From Escherichia phage JLBYU27: a DNA stretch of 16,547 nucleotides. The first letter of the stretch is position 1; the number at the start of each line of letters is the position of its first letter. Location of the stretch: sequence record OK272475.1; one strand, 5' to 3'. The notes beneath the pieces were generated by a model. That model saw only the letters and a program-made list of their open reading frames with translations, had not been told where the DNA came from and did not search any database. Shown in pieces: positions 1 to 13,822 of the stretch. The position numbers and the translations under genes are program-made.

Positions 1-26
1 ATCGAAATCCTTTGAGTTGTGAGCAT
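1..26 (-). CDS. 5' end of an unidentified gene running off the window (partial)
   Basis: ATG at 26..24 on minus strand downstream of the scaffold-gene terminator; only 8 codons (MLTTQRIS) visible. By synteny it could be the capsid gene that normally follows a scaffold gene. Confidence 0.2.
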
Positions 27-66
27 TCGCCCAGTACCGTTAATGTTACCTTAGATTTACGCGCTC

Positions 67-90
67 GCAAAATCGCCCGCTTTAGCGGGC
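67..90 (-). terminator. rho-independent terminator after scaffold gene
   Basis: Perfect inverted repeat GCCCGC-ttta-GCGGGC (75-90); on minus strand the stem is followed by GATTTTG. Sits immediately 3' of the scaffold stop (98-100). Confidence 0.45.
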
Positions 91-97
91 AATGTGC

Positions 98-802
98 TTA
101 CTCGTCGTCGCCCATCTTAGCGATAATATCCCCGGCCTGTTTCGTCAGGTCAGTGATGCCGAAGCTATGGCCCATCGTAATTTTGGGCTTCATATCTTCG
201 ACAACATGCGTCGGTTTGCTGGGCGCACCACCGGCTGGCGTGCCAGCCAGGACGGATGCAAAATCGGCGTTATTACGGAACTCTTTTTCAAGCTCTTCCA
301 TAGTCAGCGCGGACGGTTTGCCATCCTGCAAGACTCGCACTTTCAAGCTGCCGTCTTCGCCGTCTTCCAGCGTCAGGCGGTCCATTACGTGGCGTTGCAT
401 GATTCCAGCATTCTTACCGAACAGCTTCGAGGCCAAATCTTTGGCAGCGCTGCCGATGGTTAGATCGTGGATCTGCTTGCGGTAGGCTTCGATTTTTCCC
501 GATGTGTCTGCTTCGTGTTTCGCAAACTTATCTTTCCAGGACTTGTCGATCGCTTCGAGGTCGCCATTTTTGCGCGCTGCGGCTTCCTCTTTCTCTTTCG
601 CAAGGCGCTCAGCTTCGGCGCGGCGTTCTGCTTCTGCTTTCTTCTCGCTAACCAGCTTCGCGTTATTGTCTTTCAGACCCTTGATCTCCGCCTGTACTTC
701 TTCGGCGGTCATGAACGTTGATTTATACCCGTCACCATCGGCAACAAAAAGCGCCTTCATACCTTCCGGCAACGCGTCATATTCTGCTTTAGTAAGTTTC
801 AT
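98..802 (-). CDS. putative phage head scaffolding protein (234 aa)
   Basis: ATG at 802 with GGGGGA Shine-Dalgarno 4-6 nt upstream (the longer ORF-track form starts at a GTG at 850). Highly charged, Ala/Glu/Lys-rich coiled-coil-like sequence (AEAERRAEAERLAKEKEEAAARK). Located after the portal and head-morphogenesis genes. Confidence 0.55.
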   Translation of the reverse strand: MKLTKAEYDALPEGMKALFVADGDGYKSTFMTAEEVQAEIKGLKDNNAKLVSEKKAEAERRAEAERLAKEKEEAAARKNGDLEAIDKSWKDKFAKHEADTSGKIEAYRKQIHDLTIGSAAKDLASKLFGKNAGIMQRHVMDRLTLEDGEDGSLKVRVLQDGKPSALTMEELEKEFRNNADFASVLAGTPAGGAPSKPTHVVEDMKPKITMGHSFGITDLTKQAGDIIAKMGDDE

Positions 803-891
803 GCTATCCCCCTGGGATTGTGGCAAAGCGGGCCACCCGCTTGACTTCACGCCTTAATATTATCAGCGATAAAAATAATCGCAAAATTCGC

Positions 892-921
892 TTGCATTGC
901 GGATGTTGGTTGCATTATATT
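892..921 (+). promoter_or_regulatory. sigma70-like promoter for the plus-strand clamp-like gene
   Basis: -35 TTGCAT (892-897), 18 bp spacer, -10 TATATT (916-921); leader GGTTGCGCACCAACAACGAGGAA contains the RBS. The same -35/-10 hexamers and a near-identical leader recur on the minus strand at 10679-10735. Confidence 0.4.
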
Positions 922-950
922 GGTTGCGCACCAACAACGAGGAAATGACA

Positions 951-1463
951 ATGATTAAAGTTAACTATGCCGATCTTAAAGCCGCTATGATGTGCGCCGC
1001 AACTAATGACGTGCGATACTATCTGAACGGTGTATTTTTCGACGAGAAAGGATTCATCGTGTCCACCGACGGACATCGCTTGTTCTGCGGGTCCGCGGTT
1101 GTTCCCGAAGGTGAAAGTAAAATAGTAGCAATTAAAGGCCGCTTACCTACTAAATTCGAATATTGCAACATAGACGGCACCTCCGCTGCGTTCTTTGATA
1201 GTAAAGACGTATTAATCGGTACCATACCCGTAGAGATCATAGACGGCCGATTCCCAGACTGGCGTAGATTTACGTCTTTCGACAGCGCTAAAGTGGAGGC
1301 TATAGGGTTTGCCGGGGTGTACCTGTCCGACGCCTGCAAAATTGCTAAATTGTTCGACCGTAAGTTTGATAGCTTAAAACTGGAATTTCAGGGAGTAGAC
1401 AAGGGGGCACGTGTGCTGTTCAAAGGCGGTGCCTTCCTTGTTATCATGCCGATGCGCTTGTAG
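951..1463 (+). CDS. truncated DNA polymerase III beta sliding clamp (DnaN) homolog, domain II plus shortened domain III (170 aa)
   Basis: ATG at 951 with GAGGAA 7-8 nt upstream. Protein contains DVRYYLNG, TDGHRL and DGRFPDWRR and ends in VIMPMRL, matching conserved E. coli DnaN motifs as recalled (DVRYYLNG, TDGHRL, DGRFPDYRR, C-terminal VVMPMRL). No equivalent of DnaN domain I. Opposite strand to all neighbours, with its own promoter and a terminator. Confidence 0.75.
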   Translation: MIKVNYADLKAAMMCAATNDVRYYLNGVFFDEKGFIVSTDGHRLFCGSAVVPEGESKIVAIKGRLPTKFEYCNIDGTSAAFFDSKDVLIGTIPVEIIDGRFPDWRRFTSFDSAKVEAIGFAGVYLSDACKIAKLFDRKFDSLKLEFQGVDKGARVLFKGGAFLVIMPMRL

Positions 1464-1468
1464 CTAAC

Positions 1469-1501
1469 GAAAAAGGGGCCATTACGGCCCCTTAATTATT
1501 T
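1469..1501. terminator. bidirectional rho-independent terminator between convergent genes
   Basis: Stem AAGGGGCC (1473-1480) / GGCCCCTT (1486-1493), loop ATTAC; A-run upstream and AATTATTT downstream on plus strand, so a U-tract follows the hairpin on either strand. Lies between the clamp-like gene stop (1463) and the Rz1-like gene stop (1482). Confidence 0.6.
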
Positions 1502-1712
1502 GCTGCAACTCCAACACCTGCGCCCTCAGCTTAGCACCGCACTCCATATTTTTAACATCAATCATCAAATCTTCGTCGGGGTCCGCAGACGGGCTATCGA
1601 ACTTGCACGGCGGTCGCAGTGCCGACTCCGTTAGCGGCATCAACGGCGCGTTGCTTGATCCGCACGCGCTCAGCATCAAAACTACAATCAGGGCGGTTAG
1701 GGCGCGTAACAT
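1482..1712 (-). CDS. putative o-spanin (Rz1-like outer-membrane lipoprotein, 76 aa)
   Basis: ATG at 1712 with AAGAGG RBS. N-terminal signal peptide with lipobox LSAC; proline-rich mature part containing Cys. The gene starts inside the upstream Rz-like ORF in another frame and extends beyond its stop (overlapped spanin architecture). Confidence 0.5.
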   Translation of the reverse strand: MLRALTALIVVLMLSACGSSNAPLMPLTESALRPPCKFDSPSADPDEDLMIDVKNMECGAKLRAQVLELQQIIKGP

Positions 1713-1923
1713 ATTTTACAACCTCTTTTGTGATAGTCCGGTATTCCACGTCGCGGGCTTGTTCTGCCTGCACGGAGCGCTCAATTACTTTAGTTTGCTG
1801 CCGTTGGGCTTCGGCTTGCGCTTCTTGCGCCGCCTCAGCCACTACGCCAGCGCGATAGGAGTCACCAAGCCAGAATCCTACCGCCAGACCTATAACCAGT
1901 CCAATAGCCGCATACTTAATCAC
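1594..1923 (-). CDS. putative i-spanin (Rz-like, N-terminal TM helix plus Ala/Gln/Glu-rich helical region)
   Basis: No in-frame ATG; GTG at 1923 (GGGGG RBS, overlaps the stop of the upstream gene) or TTG at 1953. N-terminal hydrophobic segment IKYAAIGLVIGLAVGFWLG followed by AEAAQEAQAEAQRQQ, one Cys near the C-terminus. Contains the embedded Rz1-like gene. Confidence 0.45.
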   Translation of the reverse strand: MIKYAAIGLVIGLAVGFWLGDSYRAGVVAEAAQEAQAEAQRQQTKVIERSVQAEQARDVEYRTITKEVVKYVTRPNRPDCSFDAERVRIKQRAVDAANGVGTATAVQVR

Positions 1924-3019
1924 GCCATAACCCCCGGTTTTTAAGCTGCGCAATAGTCATTAGTTCGCCTGAATCGGTGAACATCTTCGGGACTTTCACG
2001 CCGCGCATAATCTGGTCGGCGCGTTGCACCCCGTATAATTCTTCCAGGATATGGCGCGGCTGGCGCTGCACCCATGAGAAGAAATCAGTCTGCGCGTCGA
2101 CCTGCTCACTCAGCAATCGGCCCGCGTCAGCCTTCAGTGCCGGACGCTTACCACTGGGCCAATCTTCCATGCCTTTAACCTTCCACGTCTCCGTCGACCG
2201 GCAACAATAATGCAACTTGCCCGGACCAGCGCCATATTGTGACCCAGCCACCATTTTCCCGCCGCGCTTTCCTTTGGTGTCGGGAGTAACATCAACCGGA
2301 TAAAACAGGCGATCGCGTAGCTGGCACATGGGAGAAGTATGCGTGTCCAATGTAGATAACCATTGGCGACCTTCGAGAATATCGTCATTTGCTTTTACCA
2401 TTAGTTCGCGGGCGGTCGCCGCATAGTGGTTGACTGCCGACTTAACAACGCTTGAGATAGCTTGCGCACTACGACCGCCGAGCGCGCGCCTCACGTCCGC
2501 TATAATTTCCATAGTCGGCTTGCCCTGGATGAATCCGGCGCGCACCTGATTGCCGATCTGCGTTCTGGTCCATTCTGAAAGTGAATCGGGCCATTGCATC
2601 ATCGTATTACCCAGGAACGGGTTTTTCATCGCAGTCGCTGCGATCTGCGCACCTGTCACTACGCCCACCACCTCGACCGCAGGTACGGCGACCACCGGCT
2701 GGATCGCTGCCGTTAATGTGTCGGCGAGATAATCGGCCTCGGTGTCGGCAAACTCCTGAAGGCTTTCAGCCAACACCTTAAACTCGGTGCGCAGTTCCGT
2801 TTTGACGGTCTTGTCCAGTTGCGTCAACAGTGTGGTAAGTGCCTTGTTGCTCATGGTCTTTTTGCCATCAAGTAACTCGGTCAGCTTACCCAGTAGCGTG
2901 GGCCGGAACTTCTCCCACATAGCCAACACCCTCCGCGCCTGGTCATTGCTCAGGCGCTGGGTGAAGATGTGCCGGCGAATCATTCGATCCGCCATATATT
3001 GATTAATTGTCTTCGCCAT
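1916..3019 (-). CDS. phage head morphogenesis protein (Mu F / SPP1 gp7 family-like, 367 aa)
   Basis: ATG at 3019, overlaps the portal gene 3' end by 17 nt. Contains the family-typical block TLDTHTSPMCQLRDRL ... GKLHYCCRST (D.HT/S ... H.CCR). Position directly after the portal gene. Confidence 0.75.
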   Translation of the reverse strand: MAKTINQYMADRMIRRHIFTQRLSNDQARRVLAMWEKFRPTLLGKLTELLDGKKTMSNKALTTLLTQLDKTVKTELRTEFKVLAESLQEFADTEADYLADTLTAAIQPVVAVPAVEVVGVVTGAQIAATAMKNPFLGNTMMQWPDSLSEWTRTQIGNQVRAGFIQGKPTMEIIADVRRALGGRSAQAISSVVKSAVNHYAATARELMVKANDDILEGRQWLSTLDTHTSPMCQLRDRLFYPVDVTPDTKGKRGGKMVAGSQYGAGPGKLHYCCRSTETWKVKGMEDWPSGKRPALKADAGRLLSEQVDAQTDFFSWVQRQPRHILEELYGVQRADQIMRGVKVPKMFTDSGELMTIAQLKNRGLWRD

Positions 3020-4523
3020 TGTCCGCTACCTCGTCCGGGTCTTCGTCGGTAGATTCTACCGCATCCGGGGACATTTGAGGCAATGGATTCTGATTTCGCA
3101 ATTCGTCTTCCACCTGCTCAACGGTTTGCGAGTCATCAATGACGCCCTGGGCCATCATCCACTTTATAAAGTCCGCCAGACGGACCGTACCGGTCTGCAC
3201 ACCAGCCATCATTGCGGTCATAAGCTGTGCGTCAACCGTGATTTCGGTGTAGAACTTATTCAGCGTTACACGTTGATCTGCGGTGTCGCCAGTGAACAGC
3301 TTGACGATTTGCAGCGCACGGTTGAAAGCCTTCTCAACGTTACCGGCAATCAGCGACAGGATACTGTTATCAGTCTGCGCATCGTAGGCCGCTTCAGTTG
3401 CCGTCTTAGGTGCGGTCCCCTTCTCGACCAGGGCAGCGCCCAGTTTAGCCATTTGCAACTCGCGTCGCTCACACAGCGCAACTGACAGGTTTCTCTCCTC
3501 CGCCTGAAGCAGTTTAGCGTCCATGTTCTGGCCCAGGATAACGCCCTTAGTTGCCCCGAGCGCGATGCCTCCCTTCAGGTTTTTATCAGCCCATGATTGG
3601 GTAAGACCGGTTGCAATGAGAGTAGGTTGACCCACGATGTGCGCAATCTCGGCGACGTCCGCTTCGGCGTTGTAGTGCTTAATGTTGATGGACGCAATAT
3701 CCGCCAGCGGTGCGGCGTCCGGTGTCGCGTTGTTGTCCACCGCGCCACACCAGCAAAATGGCAGTTGAGTAAGCGCATTACCGGCGGCATCCACCAGTGG
3801 CACAAGGTCGGTGCGGGTGAATCCCCGCGGCAAGTCCATTTGCACCTCGGACGTGTCCGCGTTGTAATACCAGCGGCGACCGTGTGCCACACCGTTAATC
3901 ATGCGAAGCTCGGTCCAGATTGTAACTTTGTGGTTTGCGAAGTCGTCCGGGTCTTCGGTGCTGATTTCGTCCGTTTCCTTCAGCACAATTAGCGTATCGA
4001 CGCCGTGGGTCTGCCGCCAGTTGATGATCTGTTCTGCCGTGTACAGGCGTATAAGCGGGCGGTGTGACGCCATTTCAGCGGCTGTCTGCGGCACTACGTT
4101 ACCCAGTTCATCAAAGTTAGCCTGGCGGTCGTAGTCCACCATAAAGCCAGCGCGGCCCGATTGCAGCACTTCCGACATAGCGCCGCGCAGGAGTTGCGCC
4201 AGTGGCATCCCGCTGCCGTCTACGTCATCAATCAGGTCAGCCATTGCCCCGGAAAGGTCCATACTCACCGGTTTGGCGAAGGCGACACCTAACAGTGCAT
4301 TCAGTGTGCGGGCGGTGGCGTTCAGGAAGACAGCACGTTGCTTATATGCCTTATAGCGCGCACGCGATTTCGGGTCAGTGGTGTCGCCGCTGGCTGGGTG
4401 TGGCAGGTACAAGGGGCCGCACGCCTTCACGGCGCGCTCCCCTGCTACACAATCACGGATCATTTTCCACTCTGGCGAGATGCGCGCATAGAGCGGGTGC
4501 TGGTTGTCAACGTTAACGGTCAT
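3003..4523 (-). CDS. phage portal protein (506 aa)
   Basis: ATG at 4523 with AAGGAA RBS 8 nt upstream. 506 aa with a strongly acidic C-terminal tail (DEDPDEVADNGEDN). Sits between terminase large subunit and head morphogenesis protein. Confidence 0.7.
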   Translation of the reverse strand: MTVNVDNQHPLYARISPEWKMIRDCVAGERAVKACGPLYLPHPASGDTTDPKSRARYKAYKQRAVFLNATARTLNALLGVAFAKPVSMDLSGAMADLIDDVDGSGMPLAQLLRGAMSEVLQSGRAGFMVDYDRQANFDELGNVVPQTAAEMASHRPLIRLYTAEQIINWRQTHGVDTLIVLKETDEISTEDPDDFANHKVTIWTELRMINGVAHGRRWYYNADTSEVQMDLPRGFTRTDLVPLVDAAGNALTQLPFCWCGAVDNNATPDAAPLADIASINIKHYNAEADVAEIAHIVGQPTLIATGLTQSWADKNLKGGIALGATKGVILGQNMDAKLLQAEERNLSVALCERRELQMAKLGAALVEKGTAPKTATEAAYDAQTDNSILSLIAGNVEKAFNRALQIVKLFTGDTADQRVTLNKFYTEITVDAQLMTAMMAGVQTGTVRLADFIKWMMAQGVIDDSQTVEQVEDELRNQNPLPQMSPDAVESTDEDPDEVADNGEDN

Positions 4524-4534
4524 GGTTGGTTTCC

Positions 4535-5920
4535 TTAGTAGAAGTCTACGGTTGGAACAACGGCGATCGGTCGAATCACAGGGAACAGGTGCGCAACAGG
4601 ATAGCCCGCGGCGTCGTTCATGTGGTCCACACCGGCAGTTTTATCCGGCTCGCCTTTCTTCAGGTCATAAACCTGCTGTTCCAGACATTTCGCTAGTGTA
4701 GGGCATTTATCCAGGTTGACAAAATACTGGCGCACGCCCTTCGAGTTGCACATCATCGTATTCATCGCGATCAATCGGTCTTTCACTGGCGGGTTAACGC
4801 TGTCATATTCCACATTGAAGCCAGCATCTTCCAGTTGCGCGATATCGGACGACGACGCGTTGACCGTTTTGCGGGATTTTCCGCTGCTATCCGGGTAAAC
4901 GACTACCCTACCGGCGGCACAATGTTCGGGATAGCGCTCCTCGATCGCCTCAATCATAGCCGGGGTGTCAAACAGGTCCACGAATTCATCCACGGCGTGA
5001 ATCTCGTCGCGGAACTCCTTGTTCTCGGTGGTACGCTGCCGTCTTACATACACGACCGCCGCCATTTTCGTGACGTTAAAGTCCATACCGATAATCAGCG
5101 TGTCGTCCGGCTGCACTTCTTCGGTGCTGGCGTTCTCCTCGCGATTAAACATCTTGTACACCGCGCCCGACGTAAGGTTAACAAACAGGCCGTTCAGGTA
5201 CGCATCAATCAGGTTAGCCGGGTACTGACTGCGAAGCGTGTCGATAAAGTCTGCTGGTAAATGGTGGTTGTCTGTGGTCTTCGCCCGGATCAAGCGTTTC
5301 TGGCTGTCCTTCTCCACCTCGAAAATTTGGTACATCGCCCGGTAGCCTTCAGGCGTTGACACGATGACGAACTGGCGGACGAAGCCCGCACGCAGACGAC
5401 CTAGCAGTTTGTGATATGCCGCCAGCGCGACGTCTTGTTTCGTGGTGTCGAACTCGTCGGCAACAATCCACGCGGCGTTGACCCCGATCAGGCGGGTATA
5501 GTTCTCCATTGATTCACAGATCACGCGGGTCCATTTGCCTTTCACCAGAACGCTATAGATCTTGTCCTGCTTGTTGAACTTCCACCGGAAGCCAGCCTCG
5601 TCGAAAGCCTTTTCCAATTCCGGATACATGATTTTAACCAGGAGTGGAATAGTCGGTTCGGTAACGATGCCGTCATGACCTGGGTTCAGTGTGAGAAGCT
5701 GGATTACCTTACGGGCTGCGACCCATGACTTGCCGCCGCCGAAGCCGGAGCACAGGCCGAGGATTTTAGTCTTCGTGTCCCGTAGTAGTTCGACCTGGTG
5801 CGGTAGGCAATCAGGCTGGTAAAGACGCACCGCCTGCGCAACGCGCGTAGGGCGTGGCGGTCGGTTGCGCTTTGCGATCGCGCGCTCCAGTGCGCGGTGT
5901 TCTGCCGCATAGTTACGCAT
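4535..5920 (-). CDS. terL: terminase large subunit (461 aa)
   Basis: Walker A-like LGLCSGFGGGKS and Walker B-like WIVADEFD in the N-terminal ATPase region; C-terminal nuclease-like region (LIIGMDFN ...). Start ATG at 5920 overlaps the terS stop (TAATG). Confidence 0.9.
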   Translation of the reverse strand: MRNYAAEHRALERAIAKRNRPPRPTRVAQAVRLYQPDCLPHQVELLRDTKTKILGLCSGFGGGKSWVAARKVIQLLTLNPGHDGIVTEPTIPLLVKIMYPELEKAFDEAGFRWKFNKQDKIYSVLVKGKWTRVICESMENYTRLIGVNAAWIVADEFDTTKQDVALAAYHKLLGRLRAGFVRQFVIVSTPEGYRAMYQIFEVEKDSQKRLIRAKTTDNHHLPADFIDTLRSQYPANLIDAYLNGLFVNLTSGAVYKMFNREENASTEEVQPDDTLIIGMDFNVTKMAAVVYVRRQRTTENKEFRDEIHAVDEFVDLFDTPAMIEAIEERYPEHCAAGRVVVYPDSSGKSRKTVNASSSDIAQLEDAGFNVEYDSVNPPVKDRLIAMNTMMCNSKGVRQYFVNLDKCPTLAKCLEQQVYDLKKGEPDKTAGVDHMNDAAGYPVAHLFPVIRPIAVVPTVDFY

Positions 5921-6492
5921 TAATCACCCTGACCTTTGCCGGTAGGTTCCACAACGACGTCGCCGTTATCATCTTCGTCGTCATCCAGCGGTACATCGTC
6001 GCGGACGCCGTGGTTTGCTTTAAGCAGGAATGTAGCGAAGCCTGCCGCGATGGTCACGCCGCCAGCTTCCATCAGGAAGGTTTTCTGCAGTTCCATAGCG
6101 TCCGCCATCGCCTCGGCGAACTCCTCATGTGCGCGCGCCCAGCGATACAGGCAAGCTACGCCCACACCGATTTCCGCGGCAAATCGTCCGAAGGTTGGCA
6201 TTTTGTTGCGAGGGATTACTTGCGCAGCGCCTTTATCGGAGTAGTTGACCTGCCAGGCGTCGGCGTCGGCAAAATAGCGGCGAAGCTGGTCGCAGTAAAC
6301 GGATCTGTAGTCAGTAGGGCGCCCACATTTGCCACCTTTACGGCGCTTGCCATACTCGATCTCGGGTCCAAGATTGGTGTGTTCTGTTTGCTCGCCTGGT
6401 TTACGGCGCGGGGTTACTGCTACTCGTCCGTCCAGTTTGGCGCGTCGGCCCTTAACTTTGATTTCTGCCATGATATAAGCCCTTTTGTTCAT
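5920..6492 (-). CDS. terS: terminase small subunit (about 190 aa)
   Basis: Translationally coupled to terL. Contains the HTH-like block TFGRFAAEIGVGVACLYRWARAHEEFAEAMADAMELQKTFL typical of small terminase subunits. Start taken as ATG 6492; ATG 6471 (AAGGG RBS) is an alternative; the ORF-track start at 6570 is a non-ATG codon and less likely. Confidence 0.7.
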   Translation of the reverse strand: MNKRAYIMAEIKVKGRRAKLDGRVAVTPRRKPGEQTEHTNLGPEIEYGKRRKGGKCGRPTDYRSVYCDQLRRYFADADAWQVNYSDKGAAQVIPRNKMPTFGRFAAEIGVGVACLYRWARAHEEFAEAMADAMELQKTFLMEAGGVTIAAGFATFLLKANHGVRDDVPLDDDEDDNGDVVVEPTGKGQGD

Positions 6493-6541
6493 ATGCGCCG
6501 ACCATCGGCAACATAGGAGACGGCCCTGCCATCTAATGGGG

Positions 6542-6575
6542 ATTATAACAGGCGCAAAAAAGCCCACCAAATCGG
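6542..6575 (-). promoter_or_regulatory. candidate promoter for terS overlapping the upstream terminator
   Basis: Perfect -10 TATAAT on minus strand (complement of 6542-6547), 17 bp spacer, weak -35 TTGGTG. Confidence 0.3.
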
Positions 6576-6580
6576 CAGGC
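6556..6580 (-). terminator. putative rho-independent terminator after the metallophosphoesterase gene
   Basis: On minus strand: GCCUGCC-GAUUU-GGUGGGC followed by UUUUUU (stem includes two G.U pairs). Lies 22 nt after the stop at 6602. Confidence 0.4.
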
Positions 6581-6601
6581 TGGGAGGATTACGGGTTGCC
6601 G

Positions 6602-7744
6602 TTACTTCAACATTTCCGGGCTAATGGTTAAGCGCGCTACTTCGCCGTAGTTGGCGCTATAGGTAATGACGTTGGCACTACGACCGGACATCCAACCACC
6701 GCGGCTGGCGTAGGCGTCTTTCGCTGCGAGGGTCCGGTGCTGTTCAACAATCATGTTACGGGATTCTACAATCTTCTGGTGGTGCAAGTGGCCTACGTGC
6801 GCGTAGCTGTACTCACTGGCCCCGAAAGCCTGTCTGAATTTAGAAATCATGACGGTTTCGATAGCGTCAAAGCGCGCTTTATGCCCGTGGTGGAAAAATA
6901 GCGTGGTCTTGCCGTGCTGCACCATTTTGTAGACGTCCGGGGACGTATCCACATCGACGCGCGGCTCGTTCTCGTACAGCGTGTTGAACATCTCAGCAAG
7001 CCAAATCATGCCCGACTCATCATGATTCCCCTGGACGATTAGCAGTTTGACTTTGTGGTGTTTTTGCAGGGCAAGTTCGACGACGTTGCGCACCATGCGA
7101 ATCATGTATCGGACCAGTTTCTGGTATCGGGTGTCCGCGTCCAGTATGTGACCACTTGCCGGAGTGACAGCATCGAGGCTATCAAAGTGGGCCATATCAC
7201 CGAGGATATTAATTACGGCAGTGCCTGCGTCCGGGGCGCGGGCGAAGGCTTCGACAAACCAGCGGTAGAACAGGTCTTCGGCTATCGCCATATCCCAGTC
7301 TTCGCCAGTCTCCTCGCCCCATGCCAACATGCCCAGGTGGAAGTCTGACACGGTGTACAGGTTGAGTAAGTCGAGCGCCTGGATCGGTACTGGCGGGGCG
7401 TTTACTGGCGCTGCCGGTGTGATTTCGCTGTTCATACCCTCGACAACAGCGCGCATAGCTTCGAGTTGGCGCTCCTTGTCCTGCTCAGTGATAACCCACG
7501 ACATGACCTCTTCGCCATTGCCGCGCACCAGGGCCGATACGCGCTTAACGCCGAAGCCATCGGCAACGCGCTGGCGGATTACGGCGTCGTTGCCGTGCCC
7601 AATTCCTTTTTTCGATAGGCGGGCTTTCCGCATGTAGACGTTTCGGAGGGACAAACCGTACTTCTTAGAAATCTCTTTCGATGTAGCGCCGGATTGTAAT
7701 TCAGCAATCAATTGCTCGTCTGTGATTTTAGTTTGCGGGTGCAT
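6602..7744 (-). CDS. HTH domain fused to a calcineurin-like metallophosphoesterase (380 aa)
   Basis: ATG at 7744 with AGGAAG RBS 6 nt upstream. N-terminal HTH-like segment (TSKEISKKYGLSLRNVYMRKARLSKKG). Metallophosphatase signature motifs in order: DFHLG, GDMAHF, GNHDE, HHGHK, GHLHH. Own promoter and flanking terminators. Confidence 0.75.
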   Translation of the reverse strand: MHPQTKITDEQLIAELQSGATSKEISKKYGLSLRNVYMRKARLSKKGIGHGNDAVIRQRVADGFGVKRVSALVRGNGEEVMSWVITEQDKERQLEAMRAVVEGMNSEITPAAPVNAPPVPIQALDLLNLYTVSDFHLGMLAWGEETGEDWDMAIAEDLFYRWFVEAFARAPDAGTAVINILGDMAHFDSLDAVTPASGHILDADTRYQKLVRYMIRMVRNVVELALQKHHKVKLLIVQGNHDESGMIWLAEMFNTLYENEPRVDVDTSPDVYKMVQHGKTTLFFHHGHKARFDAIETVMISKFRQAFGASEYSYAHVGHLHHQKIVESRNMIVEQHRTLAAKDAYASRGGWMSGRSANVITYSANYGEVARLTISPEMLK

Positions 7745-7769
7745 AATTACTTCCTGATTATGGGACCGG

Positions 7770-7805
7770 GGACAATATATCACGGGACTTATCGAGGCGG
7801 GCAAT
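7770..7805 (-). promoter_or_regulatory. extended -10 promoter-like element for the metallophosphoesterase gene
   Basis: Minus strand reads CGTGATATATT (TG-n-TATATT) flanked by GTCCCG / GTCCCCGG motifs; possible weak -35 TTGCCC 19 bp upstream. Confidence 0.35.
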
Positions 7806-7830
7806 AAAAAGCCCGGATAATACCGGGCTT
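7802..7830 (-). terminator. rho-independent terminator ending the lysis operon
   Basis: 8 bp stem AAGCCCGG / CCGGGCTT with 6 nt loop; on minus strand followed by TTTTTATT. Located 7 nt after the stop of the 55-aa ORF. Confidence 0.7.
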
Positions 7831-7836
7831 GATTGT

Positions 7837-8004
7837 TTACGCTGCAGGACCAGATTCTTCCTGCGGTGGTGGGCTTGGCAGCTTCGCATCGAAGACCCCA
7901 GCGTGGCTGATAGTGTCCGCGATGATAGCGCGTGCCCCAGGATCTTCGGTTTTAGCCAGTGCGGCAAGCGCGTCCGCATTATGATCAAGAATACTTTTCA
8001 ACAT
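7837..8004 (-). CDS. hypothetical small protein (55 aa) downstream of endolysin
   Basis: ATG at 8004 with GAGGGGA RBS about 7 nt upstream. No TM segment or lipobox, so not a spanin. The longer ORF-track form (to 8241) would overlap the endolysin gene and is not favoured. Confidence 0.4.
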   Translation of the reverse strand: MLKSILDHNADALAALAKTEDPGARAIIADTISHAGVFDAKLPSPPPQEESGPAA

Positions 8005-8020
8005 ATCGTGTCCCCTCGTA

Positions 8021-8512
8021 TTATGCTGCGTTACGACCGATTCGCTCGGCAACGTCCCACTGCTTACCGTCAAACAACGCCTGTCTGCCGATTGCACGAC
8101 GGACAAGCCCCTTAAGCACTGCCCCGCCTTGCTTGCGGAATTGTGGCAGTGTAGCCCGGACTTTTGCCCAGTCACCCAGGCGGACAGCATCGTCGAAGTC
8201 ACCGGCGACGTCGTCCGGCATGATCGGACCAGGGCCTGCATTGATGACCAGATCCACCAGCGCGTCGAATTGCGCTTGATTAATGCTCGGATGTGCGTAT
8301 TTGTTCACCCAGTCCTCGGCATACGCCACATCGCGCTTGAGCAGTGCCAGCGCTTCCTCGCGGGTAATGCTTCTAGGCGGATTAGTGCCAGTATGACCAT
8401 AACCCCAGGTGTACAGGCCGCGGGCCTGCTCTTTCTTGGTCGCGAAATATGGCACCGGGCTGAAAGCCTCCCAGGCTGCCGTAAATCGTAGACCGTTATC
8501 ACTGAATCGCAT
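8021..8512 (-). CDS. endolysin, phage lysozyme (163 aa)
   Basis: ATG at 8512. Lysozyme-like N-terminal block (LYTWGYGHTG) and C-terminal RRAIGRQALF resembling lambdoid phage lysozymes. Immediately follows holin-like genes. Confidence 0.8.
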   Translation of the reverse strand: MRFSDNGLRFTAAWEAFSPVPYFATKKEQARGLYTWGYGHTGTNPPRSITREEALALLKRDVAYAEDWVNKYAHPSINQAQFDALVDLVINAGPGPIMPDDVAGDFDDAVRLGDWAKVRATLPQFRKQGGAVLKGLVRRAIGRQALFDGKQWDVAERIGRNAA

Positions 8513-8744
8513 GTTTTACCCCATTCAAAACAGCATTACGCAGGGTGCGCAATGCAAACAGCCAGATTAACGCGGTCCAGGTGGTATCAGACACGTCTCC
8601 TGTTTGCAGCAACCCGATAAAACAGACCATTGCCGTTAACAGATACAGCACCCGACCGAAAATGCCATCCTGGACGGACGGCGCATACACGTTAAACAGG
8701 GACGAAGCCCCTATGATAACAAACAACAGGACGGAGATAATCAT
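8499..8744 (-). CDS. small membrane protein in lysis cassette (holin-like / antiholin candidate, 81 aa)
   Basis: ATG at 8744 overlaps the holin stop (ATGA); 2-3 predicted hydrophobic helices; overlaps the endolysin start by 14 nt. Confidence 0.5.
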   Translation of the reverse strand: MIISVLLFVIIGASSLFNVYAPSVQDGIFGRVLYLLTAMVCFIGLLQTGDVSDTTWTALIWLFALRTLRNAVLNGVKHAIQ

Positions 8745-9031
8745 TTTGCACCCCCCGGAAGTCGGAACGACGCAATAGTCCCCCGGATCCGGTCGGCGAT
8801 TGGCATCCAGAAGATGGCAGTTACGAAGCCCAAACCGGCGACAGTGCGCTCGCCAGACAAACCAGACCACTCGGCGATAGCTGGCGCACCAAATATGGCA
8901 CACAGGAAGCCAACCACGATATATAAAACGAAGTTCAACGGCCCTTTCGTTGCCTCGCCATGAATGCGTGCGCCTACGAAGCCACCAGCAAGACACGCAA
9001 TGGCGAATAACCACTCGTTTAGCTTATCCAT
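8741..9031 (-). CDS. holin (96 aa, three hydrophobic segments)
   Basis: ATG at 9031. Three hydrophobic stretches (WLFAIACLAGGFVGA, FVLYIVVGFLCAIFGAPAIA, GLGFVTAIFWMPIA) and a charged C-terminus. First gene of the holin / endolysin cluster. Confidence 0.7.
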   Translation of the reverse strand: MDKLNEWLFAIACLAGGFVGARIHGEATKGPLNFVLYIVVGFLCAIFGAPAIAEWSGLSGERTVAGLGFVTAIFWMPIADRIRGTIASFRLPGGAK

Positions 9032-9083
9032 AAAAAAGTCCCAGTAAGTTTTAGCTCACTGGGACTATATCACGCTTGCATAA
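9032..9083 (-). promoter_or_regulatory. terminator-like hairpin with embedded extended -10 element immediately upstream of holin
   Basis: Perfect 9 bp inverted repeat AGTCCCAGT (9037-9045) / ACTGGGACT (9058-9066) with 12 nt loop; on minus strand followed by TTTTTT then the holin ATG. Minus strand also reads TTATGCAAGCGTGATATAGT (TG-n-TATAGT) overlapping the upstream arm. Confidence 0.45.
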
Positions 9084-9371
9084 TTAATCGAAAATGGACC
9101 ACTTGCCGACGTCTTTCCACGCCCACCCGGATGATCGGACGGCTTCGAATGTTCGACCGCCTATCATATCCCGATACCACAGCCACCACATGCGCAACCT
9201 GGTCGGGTGCTCCGTGATTCCACGGCGCTTGTAGATCTCGAACGTCATGCGGGTAATGCTGGCGGCTTCCACAGCAGGCCATACTACGAACATCAGGACA
9301 CCCAACAGCACCGCGGTAAGCAGACACAGCCCGCAGATCAAACCAAACCAATATATCAAATCGTGTAGCAT
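9084..9371 (-). CDS. hypothetical membrane protein (95 aa, one N-terminal TM segment)
   Basis: ATG at 9371 with GGAAGGGG RBS 8 nt upstream. Hydrophobic N-terminus (IYWFGLICGLCLLTAVLLGVLMFVVW) then a Trp/Arg-rich soluble part. Confidence 0.5.
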   Translation of the reverse strand: MLHDLIYWFGLICGLCLLTAVLLGVLMFVVWPAVEAASITRMTFEIYKRRGITEHPTRLRMWWLWYRDMIGGRTFEAVRSSGWAWKDVGKWSIFD

Positions 9372-9492
9372 CGTATTGCCCCTTCCGGTTTGCCAATATG
9401 GCGCGCCCATGCACGCGCCACGAAGTAATTGCGAAATACCCGACCGCCTATCTCGAAGCGGTTATGCTGAAGCATATCACGGATCGTCGCAC

Positions 9493-9966
9493 TCATTTCA
9501 GAATCACCGAGCGCGGGTCGATGGCTTTCATGCTGCCGTCACGTTCGACCCGGATGAATCCGACGCCGTATTCCTGCGCATGGCGCTGTGCGTTTGTCAC
9601 GGCATCCGCTATGGCGCTCGATCGCTCATGCGGCTGGCGATCCCGAAGGCTGTATTTGCGACCCACTCGCTCGTAATTTACGAGGCCGAAGTAAGTCATA
9701 CCGGCGACGCCATCCTTGCGGGATTGCATACGCAGGCCATGAAGCCCGACATATTCAACGATCCACATACTACCGTCGCGAATATCACGCAGCACATCGC
9801 CGCGCGCAATATCGTGGGTCAGTACGTCAAAGTTTTCATACAGCCCGTCTTTCTTCGCCCACCAAACCCGACTGCCTGCTGCGTTTTGCAGGCGGACGTA
9901 GGAATCCAGGGTCTGTATTGGCGTAAGGATGCACCCGTCATGCTTGCGGCGGAATAGTAATTTCAT
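9493..9966 (-). CDS. hypothetical protein (157 aa), unassigned; candidate late regulator
   Basis: ATG at 9966 with GAGGAGA RBS; start overlaps the stop of the upstream small ORF (ATGA). No motif I can assign. Confidence 0.55.
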   Translation of the reverse strand: MKLLFRRKHDGCILTPIQTLDSYVRLQNAAGSRVWWAKKDGLYENFDVLTHDIARGDVLRDIRDGSMWIVEYVGLHGLRMQSRKDGVAGMTYFGLVNYERVGRKYSLRDRQPHERSSAIADAVTNAQRHAQEYGVGFIRVERDGSMKAIDPRSVILK

Positions 9967-10097
9967 TGCTCTGTCTCCTCGATCTCTTCGATAGTCTTCG
10001 TGTCGCCATCGCATACCGTAGCGATGCCGTTTTGTTTGTAGTCAAGTTCGCACATATGCAGGTAGATAAACTCCTGCGAGAATCCGCCTATCAACAT
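9963..10097 (-). CDS. hypothetical small protein (44 aa), uncertain
   Basis: ATG at 10097 with GGAGA about 9 nt upstream; coupled to the downstream gene. The same frame extends upstream to a GTG at 10268, overlapping the 90-aa ORF in a different frame. Confidence 0.3.
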   Translation of the reverse strand: MLIGGFSQEFIYLHMCELDYKQNGIATVCDGDTKTIEEIEETEQ

Positions 10098-10363
10098 CTG
10101 CTCAGTCTCCAGTGTTTGCCCACCCGCTCGACTGCGGGCTTTCGGCGTAATGTAATACGTATTCCCATTGGTAGCAAGGAAGTCCGCACCCTGAAATCGT
10201 GTTGTGCTGCGAACTGGCGCAAGTAGCGGGTCTGCGTTAATGGCTTCACATCGTCGCGATAGCGCCACAGCACAGAATCGCCCTCAATCGCATTCTTAGC
10301 CCATATTCGTATGCAATGCAGGGTAATGCGCCACGAAAGCTGTTTCGCGCGTCTGCGGTCCAT
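10091..10363 (-). CDS. hypothetical basic protein (90 aa)
   Basis: ATG at 10363 with AAGGGG RBS 6 nt upstream, 10 nt after the stop of the 101-aa gene. Arg/Lys/Trp-rich. Confidence 0.45.
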   Translation of the reverse strand: MDRRRAKQLSWRITLHCIRIWAKNAIEGDSVLWRYRDDVKPLTQTRYLRQFAAQHDFRVRTSLLPMGIRITLRRKPAVERVGKHWRLSRC

Positions 10364-10372
10364 TTTGGCCCC

Positions 10373-10678
10373 TTATTTCGCAAGCTGGGCGAATAGTTCG
10401 CGCTGGGCTTTAATCCGGGCGACGTTTGCCACTGCCGTCTCGCCAATACTGAAGAGATATGCCAGGCGCTCACGGGAGAATGCTTTGGCGTATTCGTGAA
10501 TCGCCACACGCAACGGCTTCAGTTCGTCCAGGCTGGCGTCCATGCGGTAGAGCGCATCCCTAATTGATTGGTGCGCCAGAATAGCAATCTGAAGCGCGGC
10601 GTCTACGCTGCCGTTAAGTGCCTTCGCTTCGTCCAGCTTTGCCACGGCCAGGGTGTAATTCCAGATTAGTGCTTTCAT
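10373..10678 (-). CDS. hypothetical helical protein (101 aa), first gene of the operon upstream of the lysis genes
   Basis: ATG at 10678 with AGAGGA RBS 7 nt upstream, directly downstream of the sigma70-like promoter at 10707-10735. Confidence 0.55.
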   Translation of the reverse strand: MKALIWNYTLAVAKLDEAKALNGSVDAALQIAILAHQSIRDALYRMDASLDELKPLRVAIHEYAKAFSRERLAYLFSIGETAVANVARIKAQRELFAQLAK

Positions 10679-10699
10679 CGTTCAGTCCTCTTGTTGGTG

Positions 10700-10740
10700 T
10701 GCAACCAATATAGCAGTGTGCCAGGCAGGATGCAACCAAT
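10700..10740 (-). promoter_or_regulatory. sigma70-like promoter with extended -10, flanked by two ATATTGGTTGCA direct repeats
   Basis: Minus strand: -35 TTGCAT (10735..10730), 17 bp spacer, TGcTATATT (10715..10707). The 10-mer ATATTGGTTGCA occurs twice (complement of 10701-10712 and 10731-10742). Leader is near-identical to that of the clamp-like gene. Confidence 0.45.
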
Positions 10741-10945
10741 ATTAATCACGCGTATGAAAAAGTTGATCGCTATCTGCTGAAACTGCAAACTGCATTTTTC
10801 ACTTTCCATTCTGCATCGCGCATTGGTTGCCGAGTTCATCGCCGACCGCAATTTGCATCATGTTGCCGTGGATTATGCAATCCCGGATTTTATGCAGTCT
10901 CAGACGAGGGGGGTGACAGACCCCCCGTCTAGTCTGAAAGACTGG

Positions 10946-11210
10946 GGTGCTGTCCCGCTGTCCCGATCGGCTAAACCCCGCGGCAGCACTGGCGGGGACA
11001 GGGTGCTGTCCCGCTTTGTCCCGCCCCTGGTCTGTCCCGCTTTTTGTCCCGCTTAGTTTATGCACGAAAACAGAATAGATATTCACATTTTGGGGGTGGG
11101 ACAGATCGGGACAGCACCCCTGTCCCGTTTTTAATTTATGCAATGTTGGTGGGTAAATATGCAGTTTTTAGAGGTGCGGGATAGAACGGGACAAAACGGG
11201 ACGTCCCGCC
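10946..11210. repeat. iteron-like array of at least 12 copies of TGTCCCGC / GCGGGACA in both orientations
   Basis: Forward copies at about 10951, 10959, 11007, 11017, 11033, 11045, 11121; inverted copies at about 10993, 11097, 11106, 11176, 11186; a perfect 12 bp palindrome CGGGACGTCCCG at 11197-11208. Longer unit GGTGCTGTCCCGC recurs three times. Interspersed AT-rich TTTATGCA motifs. One hairpin CGGGACAG-caccc-CTGTCCCG is followed by TTTTT. Confidence 0.8.
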
Positions 11211-11222
11211 TGTACCGCTTCG

Positions 11223-11547
11223 TTATGCGGGGTTCTGCCGCGCCATTTCATCCAGCGCAACGCGTTCCATTAGCTTGATATCTTTAAACGCACGTTGCGC
11301 GTTTTCGATGCCGTGCATCTTAAATAGCCATTCCAGTACGCCGTAGTCGATGCCGTATGCGCCGCCGAATCCGGTACGCCATTGCGTGGCGCAATCGGTG
11401 AAGACTGCGACTATCTTCGCATTGTCGGGCCATATTGCAACAGGCGGACAAACATCTTCGGGGGCCGCACCCCATAAACTTGCGGCTAAATCTTCGGAGG
11501 GTGGCGGCGGGCCATAAAAGCGTCGCGCCGCCTCAATTAGTTTTTTT
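11223..11547 (-). CDS. -1 frameshift extension of the tail assembly chaperone (GT-like T domain, about 107 codons)
   Basis: A7 slippery run (plus-strand T7 at 11541-11547) lies immediately before the G-gene stop; by hand translation the -1 frame stays open from there to a TAA at 11225..11223 (KKLIEAARRFYGPPPPSEDLAASLWGAAPEDV ... KLMERVALDEMARQNPA). Confidence 0.5.
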
Positions 11548-11899
11548 CACGCAGGCCCATCAGTTCGAGATAGTACGACGTGTGGAACACACCGAACGCG
11601 CGAGGGTAGTTAACCACCAGGCGGCGGACGTTCTCCGCGTTAAATTCATCTGGCAGATTCCAGCCTTCAGCGACGTGCATGATGGCCTCGACCATAACGT
11701 TAAAGCCTTCCGGGTCGTTGTCGTCGTATTCCGACAGCTTGCGCTCCGTGTCCTGCATGGTCTGCGAAAATTCGTCGATCGGGCGGTGGCGTACGGTAAA
11801 CGTCATTTTGCCTGGTTCGTTCTCACCAGGGCGCGGGATCTCAATCGGCAGCTTAAAGGTAGGCTTAGGGTCAAGTGTAAAGAGTGGTGCTTTAGCCAT
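11537..11899 (-). CDS. tail assembly chaperone (lambda G-like, 120 aa)
   Basis: ATG at 11899 with GGAG RBS; acidic small protein immediately downstream of the major tail gene; ends ...GLREKN with the A7 slippery site in the last codons. Confidence 0.6.
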   Translation of the reverse strand: MAKAPLFTLDPKPTFKLPIEIPRPGENEPGKMTFTVRHRPIDEFSQTMQDTERKLSEYDDNDPEGFNVMVEAIMHVAEGWNLPDEFNAENVRRLVVNYPRAFGVFHTSYYLELMGLREKN

Positions 11900-11913
11900 T
11901 GTAGTATTCTCCA

Positions 11914-11938
11914 ATAAAAAAGGGGCCGTGCTGGCCCC
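11914..11938 (-). terminator. rho-independent terminator after the major tail gene
   Basis: Stem GGGGCC / GGCCCC with loop of 5 nt; on minus strand followed by TTTTTTATT. Sits between the major tail stop and the chaperone RBS. Confidence 0.65.
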
Positions 11939-11968
11939 ATATTATCACCCGCTATTTAAGCGACCAAA

Positions 11969-12694: not shown

Positions 12695-12749
12695 AATATC
12701 CTCCTAAATCAATAGATTACAGTATTTGCAGCCTGAGACATTTCAGGTC

Positions 12750-12778
12750 TTGACTAATCATACCACCAACGGTACTAT
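12750..12778 (+). promoter_or_regulatory. sigma70-like promoter for the plus-strand HNH-like gene
   Basis: -35 TTGACT (12750-12755), 17 bp spacer, -10 TACTAT (12773-12778); GGAG RBS at 12801 and ATG at 12810. Confidence 0.4.
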
Positions 12779-12809
12779 CCACAAAAATCGTTAATCAACT
12801 GGAGCGGAT

Positions 12810-13403
12810 ATGCGTAAAGGCATTCTTTTCGAAGGCATGACATTTAGAGGCGTTACTTTGTTGCGTAAAGGGCCAGGCCTTAAGTGGTTCTGTTCTTGCC
12901 CCGTATGCGGAAGCGAGACACTTCGCACTAACGGCGCACTATTGGATTTTATGCGAGGCGAAACACTGCGCTGGGTATGTACTTGTTTCGGCAAGAAATC
13001 TCGACACGGAATGACGGGGACGCCAACAATGATTACATGGGAAGGTATGATTCAGCGATGCCACAACCCCAATGCGACTAAATACGAAATATATGGCGGT
13101 CGAGGGATTACGGTGTGTGACCGCTGGCGAGTATTCAAGAACTTCCTGGAAGATATGGGCTTGCGGCCCGCCGGAGCAACCCTTGATAGAATCGACAGTA
13201 ACGGCAACTATGAGCCAGGTAATTGCCGGTGGGCATCCCAAAAAGACCAAACCGAAAACACTCGTAGGATTGTCCGAGTTATATATGAGGGGCGTGAATA
13301 TTGTCTTAAGGAAGCGTGCAAGGCGGCGGGCGTGAATTATGACACTATTAGAAAGAAATGGAAAAAAAGCGGGGAAATGTTCCACCGCTTTGAGATGATT
13401 TAA
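12810..13403 (+). CDS. HNH/AP2-family homing-endonuclease-like DNA-binding protein with N-terminal Cys-rich zinc-ribbon-like segment (197 aa)
   Basis: Contains the W..M..RC.NPN...Y..YGGRGI.VCDRW..F..F..DMG ... LDRID..GNYEP.NCRWA motif block that I recall from phage HNH/AP2-type homing endonuclease-like proteins; N-terminal CSCPVCG ... CTCFG. Opposite strand to the flanking tail genes; its stop overlaps the stop of the convergent U-like gene (TTAA). Confidence 0.55.
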   Translation: MRKGILFEGMTFRGVTLLRKGPGLKWFCSCPVCGSETLRTNGALLDFMRGETLRWVCTCFGKKSRHGMTGTPTMITWEGMIQRCHNPNATKYEIYGGRGITVCDRWRVFKNFLEDMGLRPAGATLDRIDSNGNYEPGNCRWASQKDQTENTRRIVRVIYEGREYCLKEACKAAGVNYDTIRKKWKKSGEMFHRFEMI

Positions 13404-13822
13404 GCGCAACAGGTGTAGGGGACTGTAACCACGATGCGGGCGCGATCAACGTCCTCAACCACTGAACTGGTGTATGGCGCGTCCTGAAGCTGGAATGCAG
13501 CGCCGGAAATCTTTACCGTCAACCACTTATCCGACGTAGCGATGGCGTCCGCCAGTTCGCTCGCGTACTGTGTACCCGTGCCTGCAGGGAACACCACGGC
13601 AACCTGATATACGCCTGCATAGATTCTCCCCTTTTGCTGGAGGCCCACAAACTGGGTCGGGGCCGGTAGCAGGTACGGCTCCAGGTAGACACCACTCCCG
13701 TTTGCGTGGTCCCCTTGCACGTTCTCCCAGTTAACCTTGATCGGCCGCGGGCTTGTGCTTAGGCTCGCCGATAACTCTTCTACCACGCTGTTAAGCGCTT
13801 TGCGGATTGCGGTATTGCTCAT
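13400..13822 (-). CDS. putative tail terminator / tail completion protein (lambda U-position, 140 aa)
   Basis: ATG at 13822 overlapping the upstream stop (TAATG); size and position immediately upstream of the major tail gene. Assignment by synteny only. Confidence 0.4.
   Translation of the reverse strand: MSNTAIRKALNSVVEELSASLSTSPRPIKVNWENVQGDHANGSGVYLEPYLLPAPTQFVGLQQKGRIYAGVYQVAVVFPAGTGTQYASELADAIATSDKWLTVKISGAAFQLQDAPYTSSVVEDVDRARIVVTVPYTCCA

Follow-up and report, generated by a model that had tools for sequence, protein, structure and literature searches.

A 52-nt element on the minus strand of Escherichia phage JLBYU27 forms the whole spacer between an upstream operon of small genes and the holin gene, and at somewhat better than even odds (a probability of about 0.55) it acts as a two-way insulator of the lysis cassette, in which a terminator and translational silencer would contain an embedded lysis promoter. 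It carries a terminator-like hairpin ending directly before the holin start codon, and a promoter-like extended −10 sequence overlapping the 5′ arm of that hairpin. These elements and their geometry are strongly conserved, and the layout recurs in other phage genera. The DNA analyzed, referred to here as the window, is a stretch of 16,547 nucleotides (sequence record OK272475.1).

The window is nearest to the Dhillonvirus phages EK99P-1, B2, and YD-2008.s (88–91% identity), and its sequence identifies JLBYU27 as a virulent Dhillonvirus (an HK578-like E. coli siphophage) and not a lambdoid phage. Most of the genes in the window lie on the minus strand, in the order given in Table 1. The annotation of the first lysis gene as a holin is also present in the records of relatives, and in those of EK99P-1 and B2 the second holin-like gene carries the same annotation. 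The gene adjoining the element on its upstream side encodes a membrane protein, and its TAA stop codon (9086–9084) lies 17 nt ahead of the hairpin stem.

Table 1. Features of the window, listed in gene order along the minus strand.
Feature	Positions	Strand	Description
Large non-coding repeat region	~11230–10680	minus	
Promoter-like site of the small-gene operon	10707–10735	minus	TTGCAT-17-TATATT with TGn
Six small ORFs		minus	Small-gene operon
157-aa protein gene	9493–9966	minus	One of the six upstream ORFs
Gene directly upstream of the element	9084–9410	minus	108 aa, one transmembrane stretch, phrog_2531
Extended −10 promoter-like element	9064–9072	minus	TGATATAGT; TG at 9072–9071, hexamer TATAGT at 9069–9064
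5′ arm of hairpin	9055–9066	minus	AGTCCCAGTGAG
Loop	9049–9054	minus	CTAAAA, 6 nt
3′ arm of hairpin	9037–9048	minus	CTTACTGGGACT; holds the only Shine-Dalgarno-like bases, GGGA (9042–9039), 7 nt before the ATG
T6 (U6) tract	9032–9037	minus	Between the stem and the holin ATG (9031), abutting both; T5 to T7 in relatives
Holin gene	8741–9031	minus	96 aa, first in the lysis cassette; phrog_2359 holin, E = 3e-31
Second holin-like gene	8499–8744	minus	81 aa; ATGA overlap with the first holin gene
Endolysin gene	8021–8512	minus	163 aa; Pfam Phage_lysozyme, E = 2.5e-20
55-aa ORF		minus	
Hairpin closing the lysis cassette	7809–7830	minus	Terminator-like
Second extended −10 element	7774–7782	minus	TGATATATT; upstream of the phosphoesterase gene
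Phosphoesterase gene		minus	ATG at 7744
Terminator and perfect extended −10	6542–6581	minus	Terminator 6581–6561, then TGTTATAAT (6550–6542); upstream of the small terminase gene
Terminase genes		minus	

The window itself corresponds to 16.5 kb of a Dhillonvirus genome of ~44.5 kb, in circularly permuted order. Its parts correspond to 6970..1, 44332..39166, and 11961..6971 in EK99P-1 coordinates, and are joined via a 175-bp direct repeat (junction 10890–11064; window ends 1 and 16547), two copies of which are present in complete genomes. Around 27 kb, from the tape measure gene to the helicase-primase, is absent. Contigs of 16.1–17.2 kb with the same gene for the 157-aa protein are found in many public assemblies and, together with the repeat at the junction, this points to a repeat-bounded assembly product and not a real mini-genome. 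Two stretches, 12697–13404 and 937–1470, have no counterpart in EK99P-1 and are probably mosaic insertions; one contains a plus-strand ORF of 197 aa with no Pfam match, and the other a plus-strand ORF of 188 aa, whose hit to the DNA polymerase III beta central domain is weak and below threshold.

The hairpin before the holin gene (9066–9037, minus strand) has 12 pairs, including one G.U, and six of the pairs in its stem are G-C. Its calculated RNA folding energy is −24.1 kcal/mol (z = −5.5), a fold that was equalled in none of 200 shuffled sequences, and by number of stem pairs it ranks top among the 29 terminator-like sites of the window. A preliminary description of this DNA, made from its letters alone, reported a perfect stem of 9 bp followed by U6 before the holin ATG; this is confirmed, and an added G.U, A-U, and G-C bring the stem to 12 pairs. 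The sequence features of an intrinsic (Rho-independent) terminator are present, with a G+C-rich stem-loop and a run of U on the sense strand, downstream of a stop codon. The hairpin was annotated as a terminator by the depositors of the WF5505 record; a search of the window against Rfam gave no match anywhere.

The promoter-like element TGATATAGT shares its final three bases with the first three of the stem, so the overlap with the first arm that had been described earlier is real. It consists of TG, one base, and a hexamer with T at −12, A at −11, and T at −7, and read as TG-A-TATAGT it matches TATAAT at five of six positions. Upstream of it, the best match to a −35 hexamer read directly from the sequence is only 2–3 of 6, and the predicted promoter activity therefore rests entirely on the extended −10. 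Promoters of the extended −10 type can dispense with a −35 element. The usual 7-nt spacing from the end of the hexamer at 9064 gives G9057 as the expected start, with the neighboring A9056 also suitable (9057 ± 2). This lies inside the 5′ arm, at most three bases of which (9066–9055) would be left in an RNA started at 9057, and such an RNA cannot form the hairpin. In its geometry, the earlier proposal that a transcript starting inside the hairpin escapes it is thus upheld.

Association of the two signals is not easily attributed to chance. At the density of such matches in EK99P-1, an extended −10 with a hexamer match of 5/6 or better is expected within 13 positions of a given stem with a probability of ~0.002. 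In the same genome, half of the 12 good extended −10 matches fall within the intergenic 8% of the sequence (p = 1.6e-4). TGnTAnnnT occurs no more than 6 nt from the start of the stem at two of the eight strict terminators (expected 0.07, p = 0.002), and a third is abutted by a TTGCGT-17-TATATT promoter-like site.

An alternative is that the element serves only as a terminator or attenuator, which damps the upstream operon and leaves the lysis genes to be expressed from read-through, with TGATATAGT not a working promoter. Its conservation would then reflect the stem (for the final three bases), the context of the stop codon, or some other constraint. The hairpin and U6 are textbook terminator features, no usable −35 can be read from the sequence, and the lysis genes need only low expression, all of which fits this explanation; in addition, the literature searched (promoters, terminators, and transcriptomes, for Dhillonvirus or HK578) yielded no mapping of transcript starts or of 5′ or 3′ ends in Dhillonvirus. 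The concentration of extended −10 matches in intergenic DNA and on the coding strand argues against it, as do the predicted RNA structures and the conservation described below, and we regard it as unlikely, if deserving of serious weight.

How the arrangement might work as an insulator can be outlined from its parts. The small-gene operon that runs into the hairpin would be driven from the promoter-like site at 10735–10707, and RNA polymerase coming from that promoter (~10715) would transcribe the full stem and U6. Most of this transcription would be expected to terminate at 9036–9032, just before the holin AUG. Any read-through RNA would retain the hairpin, with its only Shine-Dalgarno-like bases paired, so that holin would be poorly translated from it. 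Host sigma-70 RNA polymerase would recognize TGATATAGT and start at ~9057, and the resulting RNA, which lacks the 5′ arm, would not terminate at the U-tract and would present a 26-nt leader open for ribosomes. The holin, the second holin, and the endolysin would consequently be made from their own promoter and not from upstream transcription. Firing of the promoter, termination at the hairpin, and the timing of each during infection are all predictions in this scheme. Because an ordinary sigma-70 promoter would already be active when infection begins, the model alone leaves the late timing of lysis unexplained; on the timing of transcription and lysis in Dhillonvirus, Kagunavirus, and Jerseyvirus, nothing was found in the literature searched.

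Calculations of RNA accessibility are consistent with the silencing step. The mean unpaired probability over positions −14 to +3 of the holin gene is 0.22 in read-through RNA vs 0.71 in RNA started at 9057, figures that apply to a site with a weak Shine-Dalgarno match (GGGA) and an AUG that itself lies outside the stem. The GGGA is predicted to be fully paired in the read-through RNA, and the stretch of the 3′ arm to be mostly open in the RNA started at 9057. The predicted pairing of the ribosome site in read-through RNA is difficult to reconcile with a terminator that leaves the lysis genes dependent on read-through.

The element is constrained much more strongly than the flanking coding DNA, as judged from alignments of related phages. 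Of 156 GenBank records, 85 match a 60-nt sequence containing it at 100% identity and 151 at 95% or more; for a control of 60 nt from the holin coding sequence, the corresponding counts are 2 and 28 of 152 records. In an alignment of 15 genomes, three of its 60 columns vary, compared with 3–24 per 30 in flanking coding blocks; two of the three are in the loop, and the third is in the stretch TTAATTATG, on the 5′ side of the promoter-like box. Within the hairpin, only the loop CTAAAA and the innermost stem pair differ among relatives. The LM40P1/Ioannina lineage, with ~70% identity over the region, retains CGTGATATAGTCCC and keeps the promoter-like box and stem; its hairpin combines an extra C in the 5′ arm with an A>G substitution in the 3′ arm, and its loop differs. 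All of the hairpin variants fold at −21 to −24 kcal/mol. Constant arms, a free loop, and a conserved G.U pair that is possible only in RNA of the sense strand are what is predicted for a functional RNA hairpin. Support from covariation is thin because the arms are almost invariant: Dhillonvirus provides a single semi-compensatory event, and the Kagunavirus/Jerseyvirus group a single wobble change.

The promoter-like sequence is equally constant, with TGATATAGT unchanged in all 16 aligned Dhillonvirus sequences, including the LM40P1 lineage. Its first six bases, TGATAT, lie outside the stem and are invariant across the 16 genomes, and bases next to them have changed in the lineage with 70% identity. 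This points to a second constraint in addition to that on the hairpin, and weighs against an element that is a terminator and nothing else.

Invariant arms around a freely varying spacer are expected for a DNA operator as well as for a hairpin. The inverted repeat, at approximately +1 to +30, could in principle be bound by a dimeric repressor of the phage or host that holds back early transcription of the lysis genes; in keeping with this, a perfect palindrome, GGACCGTGG-N8-CCACGGTCC, is centered on the −10 at the phosphoesterase site in most relatives. However, the conserved G.T position in the stem pairs only as RNA, as G.U in the sense strand, and a function in RNA, not an operator, accounts for the T6 tail and for the placement next to the AUG. 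A complete related genome contains no further palindromic copy of the half-site ACTGGGAC, and no DNA-binding protein was identified nearby with Pfam or NCBIfam. An operator is, on balance, a very unlikely explanation.

Homologous holins of the phrog_2359 family, whose loci were located by single-protein searches, allow the insulator reading to be compared across genera. At 40 loci of Kagunavirus and Jerseyvirus, the sequence before the holin start has the form CCGTG(G/C)TATCCTCCAG, loop, CTGGAGGAT, 5 nt, and TTG. An extended −10 again overlaps the 5′ arm of a hairpin, and the 3′ arm is the Shine-Dalgarno sequence, with no T-run following it. This form is constant in spite of two different upstream genes, and a single A>G change in the 5′ arm keeps its pair as G.U. 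For Kagunavirus K1H, the same accessibility calculation gave 0.15 vs 0.24, with no clear opening. In Klebsiella phage KLB22 and one metagenomic relative, with a holin that is ~37% identical, the spacer reads TTGACC-17 nt-TACTAT-T-CCCCGG...TCGGGG-A-T7-ATG. On its sequence, this spacer holds a complete sigma-70 promoter, expected to start transcription where the 5′ arm of a terminator hairpin ends, and that hairpin abuts the holin ATG. A full promoter in the same position as TGATATAGT also speaks against the view that the element only terminates.

The overlap of promoter and hairpin is not universal in this holin family, as two other phages demonstrate. In Serratia phage Scapp, ~60 nt lie between a terminator and the holin start downstream of it, no −10-like element abuts the terminator, and no clear one follows; Pantoea phage LIET2 has a terminator well upstream of the holin start, with a separate TATAAT at a distance downstream and no abutting −10. 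Comparison of these loci suggests that shielding of the lysis cassette by a terminator or hairpin, combined with a promoter of its own, recurs, and that the overlapping form arose with unrelated sequences.

A second extended −10 lies upstream of the phosphoesterase gene, and the preliminary description proposed that it shares a CGTGATATA(T)T-GTCCC signature with the holin site. CGTGATATA does have exactly two copies in the window (9074–9066 and 7784–7776; ~0.13 further chance copies of a given 9-mer are expected), and GTCCC follows both in differing register, as TATA-GTCCC at the first and TATATT-GTCCC at the second. The signature proved specific to JLBYU27, as relatives differ at the phosphoesterase site. 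Most of them read CCGTGGTATATTGTCCACGG, ...GCCTCCAGG, or ...GATCGCGG; the box is CGTG(G/A)TATATTG, and CCGTGGTATATTG is followed by TCCACGG, CCTCCAGG, or ATCGCGG. Only the extended −10 core CGTGnTATA is common to the holin and phosphoesterase sites across relatives. TGCATAA/TTATGCA was also discarded as a shared motif, since its completing T is not constant among relatives (TTAAATATGCA, TTAAGTATGCA). In most relatives (sequences L001, L005–L008, L010, L011, and L014), the phosphoesterase −10 (TATATT) is at the center of the perfect 9-bp palindrome mentioned above, at positions equivalent to 7790–7762 of the minus strand, and this palindrome looks like an operator. JLBYU27 has a different upstream module there, and the left half of the palindrome is absent.

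The idea that GTCCC is a protein-binding word tied to a cluster of GGGACA repeats was rejected, because GGGAC is not over-represented outside the cluster (34 copies in the window, 14 of them in the cluster, with ~32 expected) and GTCCC is not conserved at the phosphoesterase site. The cluster itself, at 10950–11205, consists of 14 GGGAC(A)/TGTCCC repeats on both strands, densely arranged in both orientations within the 550-bp non-coding region. In complete genomes, one region of this kind precedes the tape measure gene and another the small-gene operon. They are labeled repeat regions A and B in the record of Sodalis phage SO-1, and the repeats could be iterons or binding sites for a regulator. 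Another word, TTGGTTGC/GCAACCAA, occurs 19 times in EK99P-1 vs ~1.4 times expected. In the window it is found at 10739–10732 and 10708–10701 (minus strand), and also at 10830–10823, 927–920, and 913–906. Copies in the intergenic spacers that were read are paired and adjoin −35 and −10-like hexamers, and the word may mark a second class of promoter or a regulator site.

Punctuation by an ordinary terminator followed by a restart promoter is used by the same genome at 7830–7774 and at 6581–6542, and upstream of the small terminase gene the two signals follow one another without overlapping. Unlike these, the signals overlap at the holin gene and at the tail assembly chaperone gene (11947–11922), and the outcome there would depend on where a transcript began. 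In the latter module (11947–11916, minus strand), which sits between the major tail gene and the chaperone gene, TGATAATAT abuts a terminator, GGGGCC-agcac-GGCCCC-T6; a similar site, TGATAAAAT followed by a hairpin and the next ATG, is found at the end of the tape measure gene of EK99P-1. A literature search on promoters within terminators returned nothing of use. At the terminator 6581–6561 (minus strand), relatives differ in the 5′ arm only (AGCCTGCC, AGCCCGCC, GGCCCACC), and the changes convert G.U pairs to G-C or A-U, a variation consistent with selection on RNA structure. The neighboring position 6547/6548 (TGT/TATAAT) is the exact first base of several Dhillonvirus deposits (EK99P-1, SO-1, SSL-2009a, EP23, and others), and this start splits the perfect extended −10; it reflects either a common convention or a physical end of the genome.

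The preliminary description viewed the holin spacer as a lambdoid-style control point for late genes, with an antiterminator or activator possibly among the upstream small proteins. There is a resemblance to the late control of lambda (pR′, tR′, and Q), in that the holin, which opens the late or lysis region, is separated from earlier genes by a terminator. A protein encoded upstream, such as the 157-aa protein, would then provide late read-through or activate the embedded promoter. In lambda, ~190 nt separate pR′ from the terminator downstream of it, and polymerase reads through only once Q has been loaded at a specific site. In JLBYU27, a virulent phage, the predicted start is instead inside the terminator hairpin, and RNA made from it would have no need of antitermination. 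Searches of Pfam, NCBIfam, and PDB sequences gave no match for any of the six upstream ORFs, and hence none to the Q or N families; their PHROG families carry no annotated function. Predicted structures and fold searches for the upstream proteins identified only generic small beta-barrels. The fold predicted for the 157-aa protein is very common, with ribosomal proteins, SH3, and Tudor domains scoring equally well, and Foldseek gave no PDB match for it at E <= 0.001. The lambdoid assignment and the proposed antiterminator are not supported by these findings, and lambda-like control is very unlikely here.

Relative to most of its homologues (~205 aa), the 157-aa protein is missing 48 residues from its center. 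Many different internal deletions in the same segment are seen among homologues, and this suggests that the segment is a dispensable linker between two domains. As a speculative extension, the element could combine terminator, translational silencer, and lysis promoter in a circuit where production of holin hinges solely on the point at which a transcript started and firing is timed by this protein, binding RNA polymerase through its predicted tandem Tudor/KOW-like barrels as a new class of late factor in Dhillonvirus; we consider such a scheme improbable.

Stem-loops directly upstream of holin start codons are known from another setting. The ‘sdi’ stem-loop of lambda S tunes the choice between holin and antiholin starts. 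The JLBYU27 hairpin is similar in its location and in its predicted effect on ribosome access, and differs in having a terminator tail and an embedded promoter-like element. The N-terminus of its holin, MDKLNEWLF, has no second Met near the start that could serve as a dual start.

By analogy, the closest precedent for the JLBYU27 element would be gene e of phage T4 and not the pR′-tR′-Q system of lambda. [quoted passage not shown] Lysozyme synthesis from the long early transcripts is reduced about 100-fold according to the same reports, which give the avoidance of premature lysis as the purpose and present the mechanism as experimentally established (PMC3014915; PMC2988022). In both phages, earlier transcription units precede a lysis gene, the ribosome site is covered by a hairpin in long transcripts (as predicted here), and a promoter (also predicted here) in the 5′ strand of the hairpin gives transcripts without the inhibitory arm. 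The promoter in JLBYU27, however, resembles a host sigma-70 extended −10, unlike the gp55-dependent TATAAATA of T4; no T4-type late promoter (TATAAATA, gp55/gp33) is present at the element, which would thus work like the T4 case without being a member of the T4 regulon. Its U6 tail should also make the hairpin terminate as well as silence. The gene concerned is a holin in a siphovirus, and its control is predicted from the sequence. The design of gene e is already known; the host-type extended −10 and the added terminator tail appear to be what is new.

Dhillonvirus, Kagunavirus, and Jerseyvirus are common virulent siphophages of E. coli and Salmonella that feature in phage therapy and in studies of defence systems. 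If the insulator model is correct, the lysis cassette of such phages would be a self-contained unit, shielded from upstream transcription by one very compact element. This would be useful when engineering them, for example for the insertion of payloads or to alter the timing of lysis, and the element could serve as a small, portable terminator-plus-promoter part. It would also extend the promoter-inside-hairpin logic of T4 gene e to phages beyond the T4 group, with promoters of the host type.
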